This document shows positions 4,080 through 8,319 of a stretch of 64,000 nt of DNA, one piece after another. Under the pieces are notes generated by a model. That model saw only the letters and a list, made by a program, of their open reading frames with translations. It searched no databases and was not told where the DNA came from. Origin of the DNA: Escherichia phage PP01; the sequence record NC_054930.1; one strand, written 5' to 3'. Made by a program: the position numbers and the translations under genes. Within the stretch, counting starts at the first letter, position 1. The number at the start of each line of letters is the position of its first letter.

Positions 4080-4358
4080 TCAAAATGTAATTTCTAACCA
4101 ATCACCATCACGCTGATCACTATTGACTTTAAAGCTGAATCCTTCTTTTCTCAGCCAATCACCAATTTCTTCAGTAATCAATTTATCACGAGCAATACAA
4201 TAATAATTAAAATGTGTTTTACCTTGTTCAGCTGCTTTATTAGCAAGTTCCGAAAAATCTTTAATAAAACATTCTAGCTTAAACTGTTTACTTTTGAATG
4301 CTTTTTCGCGTAATTGATTAGCAAAAGATTCATTTTCATAAAGATCATACTGTTCCAT
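4080..4358 (-). CDS. Hypothetical protein (T4 24.2-like position)
   Basis: 92-aa ORF with ATG start, tightly packed after the upstream ORF. Confidence 0.5.
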   Translation of the reverse strand: MEQYDLYENESFANQLREKAFKSKQFKLECFIKDFSELANKAAEQGKTHFNYYCIARDKLITEEIGDWLRKEGFSFKVNSDQRDGDWLEITF

Positions 4359-4560
4359 TTTTCACCTTTTTATTGATATGTCTTTTTCTATAGACAACTT
4401 TTTCTCGAGTTTCAAATTTATTCTTAGCAGTCATAGCTCGAGCCCATAATACAGCCACTTCTTTTGCCTGTAAGTTCAATTCACGAGCAATTTCAATGAA
4501 TGACTTTCCAGACTCATGGAGTGTAAACACCACAACCTCAGTTCTCATAATCAATCTCAT
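4345..4560 (-). CDS. Hypothetical small protein with possible helix-turn-helix (T4 24.3-like position)
   Basis: 71-aa ORF; segment GKSFIEIARELNLQAKEV resembles an HTH; start uncertain (ATG at 4560 or 4548). Confidence 0.45.
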   Translation of the reverse strand: MRLIMRTEVVVFTLHESGKSFIEIARELNLQAKEVAVLWARAMTAKNKFETREKVVYRKRHINKKVKNGTV

Positions 4561-4648: not shown

Positions 4649-6067
4649 TTATGGATAGGTATAGATGATACCAGTTTCTAAAGCAGTTTTATGAATGATG
4701 TATCCATTGCGCGATTCTTGAACATCAACTTCTGGATAGTCTTTCATCATCTTCTGAAGAGTGTAACGATGCAAGTAGTATTTACTATCTGGATCTTCAG
4801 TTTTCCAATCTTTACCTTCTTCAGTCATTTTTTGGATTTCATCCATAACCCACCAACCGCACCAGATATAAGCTGAGCTACGATGTGGAAGAGGATGAAC
4901 ATAAGGTAATTCACCTTCTGGTTCCGGAGCAACTTTATCAGTCACTTGAACTTGACCTGTGGCTTTAACTGTTTTACTATCATAGTCAGTTGCTGTAACG
5001 ACAGCAGTAACTTCAATAGTTTGACTTCCAATAGATGATGTATCAACGGTGTATACATTAGTTGACCCTTCTACAGGAGAAGAATCTTTCTTCCATGAAT
5101 ACGTAATTTGTGCTTCTTCCGGAGCATCCGTAACGTTAGCAGTAAATGTAGCCGAAGCATCTTGCTGAACATTAATAGAAGGAGGAGTCAATGTAACCTG
5201 TGGATTCATTGTCTTCTTATTAACTGTCAATGATACTTCATTGGAAGTAACTTCCTTTTCATTATAATTTTCTGCAGTTACTTGGGCTACGCATTTAATT
5301 CTTTTTACTCCACTTGTAGTTGGAGTATAGTTAAATGTAGAGTTAGTTTCTCCACCAACTTGTGAATCATCTACATACCACTGATACGTGGCAGACGCTC
5401 CATCGGGTTGAGAAGCTAAGGCAGCAGTAAATTGAACCGGAGTTCCAATTACTCCAGCAGCAGGACTAGCAGGAGTTACTGCCAAGGTAGTTGTCTGCGT
5501 CTTTTTATTAACCGTCAATGATACTTCATTAGAAGTAACGCTCAATGCATCATAATCTGTCGCAGTTACTTGAGCTACACACTTGATTTTTTTAACTCCG
5601 CTTGTGGAAGGAGTGTAATTGAATGTAGCGTCAGTTGCTTCGTCTACAGGAGAACCGTCAACATACCATTGATACGTAGCAGATGCGCCCGATGGCTGTG
5701 AAGCTAAGGCAGCAGTAAATTCAACGGCTGTTCCGATTACTCCTTCTGGAGGACTATTAGGAGTTACAGCTAAGGTAGTTGTCTGTGTCTTATTTTGAAC
5801 TGTGATAGTTGTACTAATTTCAGCTGTTTCAGCTTCAGCTTCTGGAACTGTATTTGTTGCAACCACTTTAATAGTCTTTTGACCAGCAGGTCCTTTTAAT
5901 ACATAATTAAAGGTTGCTTCAGCTCCATCCTGTGGAACATTATCTACGCTCCAAGCATAGGTAATAGTTCCACCTCCAGTTTCACCACTGGGTGTAGCAG
6001 TAAACTGCTTGGTTTCATCAATAACCCCTGTTGGTGTTTTAGGAGTTATATCAACTGTAAAAGCCAT
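4649..6067 (-). CDS. hoc: Head outer capsid protein Hoc with four Ig-like domains
   Basis: 472 aa; repeated ~96-aa Ig-like units; T4 position between rnlB cluster and inh; longer than T4 Hoc as I recall it (376 aa). Confidence 0.85.
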   Translation of the reverse strand: MAFTVDITPKTPTGVIDETKQFTATPSGETGGGTITYAWSVDNVPQDGAEATFNYVLKGPAGQKTIKVVATNTVPEAEAETAEISTTITVQNKTQTTTLAVTPNSPPEGVIGTAVEFTAALASQPSGASATYQWYVDGSPVDEATDATFNYTPSTSGVKKIKCVAQVTATDYDALSVTSNEVSLTVNKKTQTTTLAVTPASPAAGVIGTPVQFTAALASQPDGASATYQWYVDDSQVGGETNSTFNYTPTTSGVKRIKCVAQVTAENYNEKEVTSNEVSLTVNKKTMNPQVTLTPPSINVQQDASATFTANVTDAPEEAQITYSWKKDSSPVEGSTNVYTVDTSSIGSQTIEVTAVVTATDYDSKTVKATGQVQVTDKVAPEPEGELPYVHPLPHRSSAYIWCGWWVMDEIQKMTEEGKDWKTEDPDSKYYLHRYTLQKMMKDYPEVDVQESRNGYIIHKTALETGIIYTYP

Positions 6068-6076
6068 AAGTTATCC

Positions 6077-6757
6077 TTATTTTAATGTTACGAAAGAAGA
6101 ATTGCGTGTTTCACGAATTAGAACTGATCCGTCACGATTAATGTAGTAAATTAAGCTAAACAAAGTTTGATGCGCAGATGCATGTTCAAAACTAGTTGGG
6201 TGAGATTTCCAATTCGGAGTTTCAGCAATCCACTGGTAAATCCACCAAGGAACAGTGCAGAATCCTGGATTTTTTCCAATCAACTGAAGATTCGGACTAA
6301 AGTTTTCCGGAAGAGTGAATACAGACGGCTTTTCAGATTCAATAATCTCAGCTACAGCCTGTTCGAATTTTTCTTCAACAAAAGGAGTATCTTCAATCAA
6401 AACATCGGTATTTTCGGGAATTTTATCCGTTTCTACTACTTCAATTTTAATGTCAGATTTAACCGGAGAATCAATCAGAAGTGCTGCTTCTGGATTGACC
6501 TCTTCATCGTCATATTTTAACCCCTCTGCAGCATCAGCAGCATCGATTAAGTCTTTAATAGATAACCCATCAGTCTCTGGCATAGGTTCATTAGCGAGCT
6601 TCTGGAGGGCTTCTTCAATATCAATAACGATATTATCAAAAGATTTATTCTTTTTGACCTTTATACCAAACTGTTCAGCATATTCAGCTAATTTAGCCTT
6701 AGCTTCTTTATTATCATCAAGAGCCTTCAGCTCTGCAATATAATCTTTATCTATCAT
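6077..6757 (-). CDS. inh: Inhibitor of prohead protease
   Basis: 226 aa, same length as T4 Inh; synteny between hoc and uvsW. Confidence 0.7.
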   Translation of the reverse strand: MIDKDYIAELKALDDNKEAKAKLAEYAEQFGIKVKKNKSFDNIVIDIEEALQKLANEPMPETDGLSIKDLIDAADAAEGLKYDDEEVNPEAALLIDSPVKSDIKIEVVETDKIPENTDVLIEDTPFVEEKFEQAVAEIIESEKPSVFTLPENFSPNLQLIGKNPGFCTVPWWIYQWIAETPNWKSHPTSFEHASAHQTLFSLIYYINRDGSVLIRETRNSSFVTLK

Positions 6758-6770
6758 AATATTTCCTCAG

Positions 6771-6778
6771 TATAAATA
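6771..6778 (+). promoter_or_regulatory. Late promoter (TATAAATA) for uvsW
   Basis: Exact TATAAATA about 30 nt upstream of the uvsW ATG. Confidence 0.6.
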
Positions 6779-6807
6779 TAGATATATTTATTACATGGTA
6801 TTTAGAC

Positions 6808-8319
6808 ATGACTGACATTAAAGTACATTTTTACGATTTTAGTCACGTGAGAATTGATTGTGAAGAAAGTACATTTCATGAACTCCGTGATTTCTTTAGC
6901 TTTGAAGCTGATGGGTATCGTTTTAATCCGAAATACAAATATGGTCACTGGGATGGACGAATCCGTCTTTTAGATTATAATCGCCTTCTTCCATTCGGTT
7001 TAGTTGGGCAAATTAAAAAGTTCTGTGATAACTTTGGCTATAAAGCCTGGATTGACCCGCAAATTAATGAAAAAGAAGAATTATCAAGAAAAGATTTTGA
7101 TGAATGGATTTCTAAATTAGAAATCTATTCAGGAAATAAAAGAATTGAACCACACTGGTATCAAAAAGATGCAGTGTTCGAAGGATTAGTTAATCGTCGT
7201 AGAATTCTTAATCTTCCAACATCCGCAGGTAAATCTTTAATTCAAGCTTTGCTTGCACGTTATTATTTGGAAAATTATGAAGGTAAAATTCTTATCATTG
7301 TTCCAACAACTGCTTTAACAACTCAGATGGCTGATGACTTTGTTGACTATCGTTTATTCAGTCATGCAATGATAAAGAAAATCGGTGGTGGAGCATCAAA
7401 AGATGATAAATATAAAAATGATGCACCAGTCGTTGTGGGTACATGGCAAACTGTAGTAAAACAACCAAAAGAATGGTTTTCCCAATTTGGTATGATGATG
7501 AATGATGAATGCCATCTTGCTACAGGAAAAAGTATTTCATCTATCATATCGGGTTTAAATAACTGCATGTTCAAATTCGGTTTGTCTGGTTCATTACGTG
7601 ATGGAAAAGCCAATATCATGCAGTATGTTGGAATGTTTGGTGAAATATTTAAGCCAGTAACGACTTCTAAATTAATGGAAGATGGGCAAGTAACTGAGCT
7701 AAAAATTAATAGTATTTTTCTTCGCTATCCTGATGAGTTCACTACTAAATTAAAGGGAAAAACTTACCAAGAAGAAATAAAAATTATTACTGGACTCAGT
7801 AAAAGAAATAAATGGATTGCTAAATTAGCTATTAAACTTGCACAAAAAGATGAAAACGCTTTTGTCATGTTTAAGCATGTATCACATGGTAAAGCTATTT
7901 TCGATTTAATTAAAAATGAATACGATAAAGTTTATTACGTATCAGGGGAAGTTGATACCGAAACACGCAACGTAATGAAAACCTTAGCTGAAAACGGTAA
8001 AGGAATAATTATAGTAGCTAGTTATGGTGTATTTTCTACTGGTATTTCAGTTAAAAATCTGCATCACGTTATTTTAGCGCACGGTGTTAAATCTAAAATT
8101 ATTGTATTGCAAACAATAGGTCGCGTATTACGTAAGCATGGTTCTAAAACAATCGCAACGGTCTGGGACCTCATAGATGATTGTGGTGTTAAGCCAAAAT
8201 CTGCTAATACGAAAAAGAAATATGTTCATTTGAACTATCTTTTAAAACACGGCATTGATCGTATTCAGCGCTACGCAGATGAAAAATTTAATTACGTAAT
8301 GAAAACAGTTAATTTATAA
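6808..8319 (+). CDS. uvsW: UvsW recombination/repair helicase (SF2)
   Basis: 503 aa; helicase motifs LNLPTSAGKS (Walker A) and DECH (Walker B). Confidence 0.9.
   Translation: MTDIKVHFYDFSHVRIDCEESTFHELRDFFSFEADGYRFNPKYKYGHWDGRIRLLDYNRLLPFGLVGQIKKFCDNFGYKAWIDPQINEKEELSRKDFDEWISKLEIYSGNKRIEPHWYQKDAVFEGLVNRRRILNLPTSAGKSLIQALLARYYLENYEGKILIIVPTTALTTQMADDFVDYRLFSHAMIKKIGGGASKDDKYKNDAPVVVGTWQTVVKQPKEWFSQFGMMMNDECHLATGKSISSIISGLNNCMFKFGLSGSLRDGKANIMQYVGMFGEIFKPVTTSKLMEDGQVTELKINSIFLRYPDEFTTKLKGKTYQEEIKIITGLSKRNKWIAKLAIKLAQKDENAFVMFKHVSHGKAIFDLIKNEYDKVYYVSGEVDTETRNVMKTLAENGKGIIIVASYGVFSTGISVKNLHHVILAHGVKSKIIVLQTIGRVLRKHGSKTIATVWDLIDDCGVKPKSANTKKKYVHLNYLLKHGIDRIQRYADEKFNYVMKTVNL

Follow-up and report, generated by a model that had tools for sequence, protein, structure and literature searches.

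The hoc gene of Escherichia phage PP01 encodes a protein of 472 aa, against 376 aa for the Hoc of phage T4, which raises the question of how the additional length arose and when it was acquired. Hoc is a well-studied, non-essential capsid decoration protein. An original prediction, made from the letters of the DNA, held that a single Ig-like domain had recently been duplicated in tandem and in frame and that the duplication would lengthen the fiber on the capsid surface. We followed up this proposal by computational analysis of the hoc locus in a window of 64,000 nucleotides of the PP01 record (NC_054930.1), and all coordinates given below refer to this window.

The reading frame of hoc is unbroken over 1419 nt. 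Its product matches the Hoc-like head decoration family phrog_1149 in PHROGs (E=1.8e-141), and its best solved-structure match by sequence in the PDB is to the T4 Hoc chains 5vf3_Z and 8t1x (E=1.2e-221). Pfam recognizes a PKD domain at 41 bits against a cutoff of 23.5 bits, with Ig_2, Ig_3, and I-set close to their thresholds. In agreement with this, Pfam, an AlphaFold model, and Foldseek all describe the N-terminal part of the protein as a string of Ig-like (PKD/I-set-like) beta-sandwiches, the arrangement that identifies a Hoc. The window belongs to a Tequatrovirus genome that is ~97% identical to IME340, NBG2, and LYE-01 over 24 kb; the gene order rnlB, 24.2, 24.3, hoc, inh, uvsW is that of T4, and the neighbors of hoc are alike in relatives. 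The plus-strand ORFs that overlap hoc (61 aa at 4691-4876) were judged to be spurious, as nothing supports them. The features of the locus are the following:

4649-6067, minus strand: hoc (472 aa, 50.7 kDa, pI 4.56), encoding in order D1, unit A, unit B, D3, and a capsid-binding domain at the C-terminus.
5792-6067, minus strand: Ig-like domain 1 (D1), aa 1-92; 90% nucleotide identity to T4 Hoc aa 1-92; a beta-sandwich in the model, with block-mean pLDDT of 81-92.
5504-5791, minus strand: repeat unit A, aa 93-188; the first D2-type Ig/PKD-like copy, of the "first-position" type; Pfam BiPBP_C and Ig_2 within aa 120-186.
5216-5503, minus strand: repeat unit B, aa 189-284; the second D2-type Ig/PKD-like copy, of the "last-position" type; Pfam PKD at aa 197-267.
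4928-5215, minus strand: Ig-like domain 3 (D3), aa 285-380; orthologous to T4 Hoc domain 3 by alignment; Pfam Ig_3 and I-set at aa 289-374; a beta-sandwich in the model.
4652-4927, minus strand: linker and C-terminal capsid-binding domain, aa 381-472; phrog_21694 over aa 408-472 (E=1.3e-41); function taken from the cryo-EM of T4 Hoc (PMC10385173).
4629-4644, minus strand: intrinsic-terminator-like hairpin AGGGGCTTCGGCCCCT with a T-rich tail, 5 nt past the hoc stop codon.

The repeat itself is readily recovered. Tandem Repeats Finder reported a period of 288 with 2.0 copies over 5211-5791 (78% matches, 0% indels, score 719), and a repeat search of the window paired 5211-5498 with 5499-5786 at 78%. 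The segment 5216-5791, which had been singled out at the outset, maps exactly onto aa 93-284, that is, onto units A and B. The two units are in frame, contain no indels relative to one another, and are identical at 224/288 nt (77.8%) and 75/96 aa (78.1%). Self-comparison therefore confirmed the repeat and the predicted figure of about 80% DNA identity over 288 bp; the units are clearly related, as had been stated, but to call them near-identical overstated a protein identity of 78%. Chance is excluded as a source of this identity, since random pairs of 288-nt windows have a mean identity of 27% and a maximum of 40% (binomial P 2e-74). A and B have exactly identical tracts of 14, 22, 11, and 17 nt, located at unit nt 7-20, 71-92, 220-230, and 262-278, respectively, at which crossovers could occur. 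The flanking Ig-like domains are more divergent, again as proposed: D1 and D3 are ~30-40% identical to the repeat units (38/96, 34/90, 30/72, and 22/70, computed in the close two-unit relative L002).

T4 Hoc (NP_049793; PDB: 5VF3 and 8T1X) is encoded by the counterpart of this gene, which likewise lies between inh and 24.3. Aligned end to end, the two proteins are separated by a single gap of 96 aa: T4 has one D2 unit (376 aa in NC_000866, 40.4 kDa), whereas the window has two (472 aa, 50.7 kDa). Both the lengths and the in-frame duplication of one Ig-like domain, T4 domain 2, into two tandem copies were thereby confirmed. Elsewhere the genes differ little, with ~90-91% DNA identity across D1, D3, and the C-terminal part, and the last 92 aa of the protein contain a single difference from T4 (E424, which is D in T4; dN=0.004). 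Both proteins are acidic (pI 4.74 for T4, 4.56 for the window), and both consist of a string of Ig-like domains on a capsid anchor. Unit B is the closer counterpart of the single domain 2 of T4, with 90% nucleotide identity, and is identical at the protein level to unit 2 of P0010 from phage BF15.

Several details of the surroundings of hoc deserve mention. The terminator hairpin behind hoc is a strong one, and the records of NBG2 and fPS-90 annotate a terminator over the hoc stop codon and the next ~34 nt. No exact match to the T4 late promoter (TATAAATA) adjoins hoc or inh on the minus strand; sigma-70-like matches occur at chance level, and a promoter was not assigned. The interval 6758-6807, which separates inh (6077-6757, minus strand) from uvsW (6808-8319, plus strand), is without the homing-endonuclease gene segE, which T4 has there; such presence or absence of a mobile endonuclease is ordinary variation. 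On the other side of hoc, the homolog of gene 24.3 (4345-4560, minus strand; DUF2774 in relatives) encodes 71 aa, compared with 56 aa in T4 and 61-67 aa in relatives, so that the start site or the N-terminus of this gene varies.

The number of units varies among relatives, a comparison that the original prediction had proposed as a check. When the best 120 cluster representatives, drawn from a search of 5.8 billion proteins, were sorted by length, they fell into classes of 376 aa (80), 472 aa (29), and 568 aa (7), with a step of exactly 96 aa; the four odd lengths were 377, 468, 567, and 570 aa. The closest protein among the representatives listed, P0009, is 97% identical to the window Hoc. 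In nucleotide records, unit number was judged by the span of hoc, 1419 versus 1131 nt. Among 60 evenly spaced records out of 677 matching phage records, hoc spans 1419 nt in ~19 and 1131 nt in ~31, the remaining ten being partial or divergent; the two-unit form therefore makes up ~38% of full-length Tequatrovirus-type hoc genes (~19/50 in this evenly spaced sample). The megablast count of 595/677 records with at least 80% query coverage was rejected as a measure of two-unit frequency because single-unit genes such as that of T4 align to both units of the query and score 100% coverage, which inflates the count.

The four-Ig Hoc proteins of the Tequatrovirus isolates 132, vB_EcoM_SP1, BF15, NBG2, and IME340 share the architecture of the window gene (1419 nt, 93-97% nucleotide identity), and differ from it only by point differences that are concentrated in the loops of unit A and of D1. 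Their GenBank labels include Hoc, outer capsid protein, and PKD domain protein, and the record of phage moskry already marks a repeat_region over the units. The five-Ig Hoc proteins of UGKSEcP1 and UGKSEcP2 (568-570 aa) have one more 96-aa unit, three as compared with the two of the window, and their first and last units are orthologous to the A and B classes of the window. Farther away, the Hoc homologs of Straboviridae, such as those of RB49 (PDB: 3SHS) and Serratia phage Muldoon, which has 10 Ig-like domains, combine a conserved C-terminal anchor with a variable Ig string. These are distant sequences (RB49 Hoc has a published identity of ~22% with T4 Hoc), whereas the window presents a within-genus copy-number polymorphism of a single domain.

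Not all length variation in hoc concerns whole units. The closest database relative by hoc DNA, phage 132 (MZ417521.1, hoc at 301-1725; 97.2%), has a gene of 1425 nt and 474 aa in which the first unit starts at aa 95 rather than 93, placing two extra residues within D1. The 570-aa protein P0002 likewise has two extra residues (EP) close to the end of D1. Because of these extra residues, the linker at the D1 end is also considered to be variable in length. Two classical laboratory phages depart from the intact gene: in the T6 record (AP018814.1, locus 301-1432), hoc is annotated as two overlapping CDS with a span of 1132 nt, and in the T2 record (PV648363.1), as three Hoc-like pieces with a span of 1117 nt. 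This suggests that hoc is frameshifted or degraded in these phages, or that the records contain sequencing errors.

Tandem repeats can mis-assemble, and with hoc broken in some records (two CDS in T6, three in T2), one might suppose that the window gene is itself an assembly or annotation artefact and that the real gene has a single unit, as in T4. The probability of this is practically negligible: units that are 22% diverged can be neither collapsed nor expanded by an assembler, the frame is intact over 1419 nt, and the same architecture is found in many independent assemblies from different laboratories.

We then considered the age of the duplication. A recent in-frame tandem duplication within the lineage of the window phage would account for two adjacent, in-register units of 288 nt without indels where T4 has one. 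Against this stands the divergence of the units, 22% overall, with a dS of 0.84 between A and B (dN 0.14, dN/dS 0.17), which is about three times the dS of 0.30 that separates the rest of hoc in the window phage from T4. The same relation was found across 13 hoc genes: comparison of first with last units gave a median dS of 0.85 and a minimum of 0.46, as against a median of 0.37 for orthologous first units and 0.42 for orthologous last units, while D3 and the C-terminal domain have a median dS of 0.24-0.25 and a maximum of 0.38. The value for A and B could be inflated if the two units diverged as alleles in separate phages before they were joined, and it could be deflated by gene conversion.

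The relationships among units lead to the same answer. Unit A is 96% identical in DNA to the first unit of phage 132 and 94% identical to that of NBG2, and unit B is 99% and 98% identical to the respective second units, so that A and B resemble one another less than each resembles its counterpart in these phages. Neighbor-joining of 22 units placed the first units from eight genes with more than one unit (those of the window, 132, NBG2, fPS-90, pSs-1, moskry, UGKSEcP1, and one IMG/VR contig) in one clade with no second or last unit of these genes inside it; in the seven relatives, units of the A and B types stand at the array positions that they have in the window. Units also group by position at the protein level in 37 multi-unit cluster representatives, where mean identity is 0.88-0.89 among first units (first of two and first of three), 0.88 among second units of two, and 0.80 between the first and second units of two. 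Extraction of units by a regular expression missed 26/122 proteins, and length-based extraction left the conclusions unchanged. No young array was found among the 30 two-unit and 7 three-unit representatives, none of which contains a pair of units more than 85% identical, and the allele is present in ~38% of the sampled Tequatrovirus-type hoc genes. With A and B separated by a dS some threefold above the orthologous value to T4, and with units that group by array position, the duplication is not recent. Positional orthology and dS refute an origin within the window phage's own lineage, which we regard as highly improbable, and the word "recent" in the original prediction had to be given up. 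The domains are old relative to the clade, and are present in many relatives, although not in all.

If the array is old, its copy number has nevertheless moved, and the footprints of this movement can be read at the DNA level. In L024 (OP072537), a gene with a single unit, one breakpoint joins sequence of unit 1 to sequence of unit 3 of L023 (UGKSEcP1), which has three units. Up to nt 129, L024 is of the unit-1 type at 24 of 25 informative sites, with the remaining site matching neither unit; from nt 143 onward, it is of the unit-3 type at 33 of 38 informative sites. The switch point is a 13-nt tract that is identical in both units, and the flanks of L023 and L024 are 96-97% identical. At the protein level, P0056, P0106, P0072, and P0075 are fusions of units 1 and 3 of the three-unit P0001 with 0 mismatches. 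Treated as one-breakpoint hybrids, 81 single-unit proteins (cluster representatives, which are phylogenetically non-independent) were better explained by a first-unit head and a last-unit tail in 58 cases; the opposite order fitted better in 15, and 8 were tied. This orientation is precisely the one to be expected after unequal homologous crossover of direct repeats. The locus therefore behaves as a variable-copy array, with length classes that differ by whole units and collapse products that are in-register head/tail hybrids, and the asymmetry of the hybrids argues that many single-unit genes probably derive from arrays.

The history of individual units can be more involved. Units are mosaics: on a conserved framework, a small number of variable patches reappear in varying combinations. 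In the T4 unit, nt 34-219 resemble B and nt 231-279 resemble A. T4 was accordingly rejected as a simple deletion product of a window-type array, as a B-type head joined to an A-type tail is the reverse of what collapse produces; given this reversed orientation, the history of the T4 unit involves more than one exchange. Some single-unit genes, at least, have a more complex history than simple collapse.

Exchange is also seen on a larger scale. Phage moskry (MN850651.1, hoc at 501-1919) is a Mosigvirus, RB69-like, yet it carries a Tequatrovirus-type two-unit hoc that is ~90% identical to the window gene over all 1419 nt, whereas RB69 matches only the C-terminal 19%; this suggests that hoc has been exchanged between genera by recombination. 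P0043 (567 aa, 24 member sequences) is a chimeric five-Ig Hoc with 53% overall identity, in which D1, the first unit, and the C-terminal domain are Tequatrovirus-like and the inner three domains have diverged strongly, which again points to modular exchange within hoc. A scan of IMG/VR returned 21 loci, few of them close. Two of these (UViG_2974735671 and UViG_2974546015; hoc from locus position 1501) are ~50% identical to the window Hoc and encode proteins of 471-472 aa with four Ig-like domains, of which domains 3 and 4 are mutually similar (54/93 and 72/92 identical); judging from the sequences, this looks like an independent tandem duplication elsewhere in the domain string.

That hoc crosses lineages, as in moskry, and that mosaicism among units is pervasive would also be expected if the array had been built by illegitimate or unequal recombination between the diverged single-unit alleles, A-type and B-type, of co-infecting phages, and had then spread among Tequatroviruses by homologous recombination. 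Near-pure single-unit genes that might represent such alleles exist, namely L005 for the A type (90% identical to A, 74% to B) and L003 for the B type (94% identical to B). We nevertheless consider this origin unlikely. The excess of 58 over 15 in the direction of the hybrids is better accommodated by single-unit genes that derive from arrays, and pure A or B genes are also expected from crossovers within the unit-end tracts (nt 7-20 and 262-278). In either case the array is old, given a median dS of 0.37 among first units themselves.

We next turn to what the second unit may mean for the protein. The AlphaFold2 model, computed from an alignment of 52 sequences, has a mean pLDDT of 83.9 and shows four beta-sandwich domains; units A and B are modeled mostly above 90 with the same strand pattern, and the C-terminal alpha/beta domain has low confidence. 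In the PDB, Foldseek ranked four-domain Ig strings highest, namely Dscam, Sidekick, and ICAM-5 D1-D4. The 21 differences between A and B lie predominantly in loops, affecting 16 of 42 loop positions but only 5 of 51 strand positions (Fisher P=0.002). Pairwise Nei-Gojobori estimates, a crude test, gave no sign of positive selection in the loops, with a dN/dS of 0.19 for A and B of the window and of 0.09-0.72 in other genes. With pairwise loop dN/dS below 1, the domain does not qualify as a diversity-generating or positively selected hypervariable domain. This negative result leaves any adaptive role of the second D2 domain hypothetical.

T4 Hoc is a monomeric fiber of 180 A whose C-terminal domain sits at the center of each gp23* hexamer, with 155 copies per capsid, and it binds mucin glycans and the E. 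coli surface through its Ig-like domains (PMC10385173; PMC9271167; PMC11150434). From its near-identical capsid-binding domain, we infer that the window Hoc would attach in the same manner, at the center of the gp23 hexamer. On the model, its fiber would be longer than that of T4 by about one Ig domain (~4 nm), and a second D2-type surface with different loops would be displayed on the capsid. By analogy with what has been reported for T4 Hoc, the role of the protein here is likely to be weak adhesion to glycans or cell surfaces.

Taken together, these observations make it very probable that the hoc allele of the window is the common one with two units and four Ig domains, in which an old D2 array has had its copy number moved by unequal recombination. 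We propose that, within the clade, one to three copies of a 96-aa (288-nt) unit make up the second Ig-like domain of Hoc as a short tandem array, and that units A and B arose by a duplication older than the diversification of the Tequatrovirus hoc genes sampled. Purifying selection (dN/dS ~0.17) would since have maintained both units, with a shared beta-strand framework and loops that differ. On this proposal, unequal homologous recombination at the short tracts of exact identity moves the copy number up or down, and segments exchanged between units and between phages yield mosaic units. T4 domain 2 is such a unit, B-like for the most part and A-like in its tail. On the capsid, a protein anchored through its C-terminus at the center of the gp23 hexamer would present four Ig-like domains and not three, an addition of ~10 kDa and ~4 nm.

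A further-reaching possibility, which we put forward tentatively and hold to be rather doubtful, is that the D2 array serves as an "accordion" cassette. Frequent unequal crossover, together with segment exchange among units or phages, would then shuffle a limited set of loop variants and vary the number of units between one and three, tuning adhesion to mucins and glycans or escape from anti-Hoc antibodies, and many single-unit Hocs, possibly including that of T4, would have collapsed or been reshuffled from longer arrays.

That Hoc homologs differ in their number of Ig-like domains is already documented in the literature. A search of the literature, with subscription journals outside its reach and hence as weak evidence, found general statements on domain number and no explicit description of an array of one, two, or three D2 units or of its unequal-crossover dynamics; filling this gap would be an incremental point. 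The hoc feature of the window is an already-known, abundantly deposited allele, neither recent nor particular to the window phage. The consequences for the window itself are therefore small, as the allele is standard and abundant and near-identical copies have been deposited and annotated.

Three points are of modest value. In the array, unequal recombination in a lytic phage has left clean footprints that can be dated. The Hoc of T4 with its three Ig domains, on which all structural, display, and mucus-adherence studies have been carried out, represents one natural length class out of three, and about one third of relatives would display a four-Ig fiber with an extra domain that differs in its loops. 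This polymorphism in length and loops should be allowed for wherever phage-display, vaccine, or mucus-adherence studies extrapolate from T4 Hoc.
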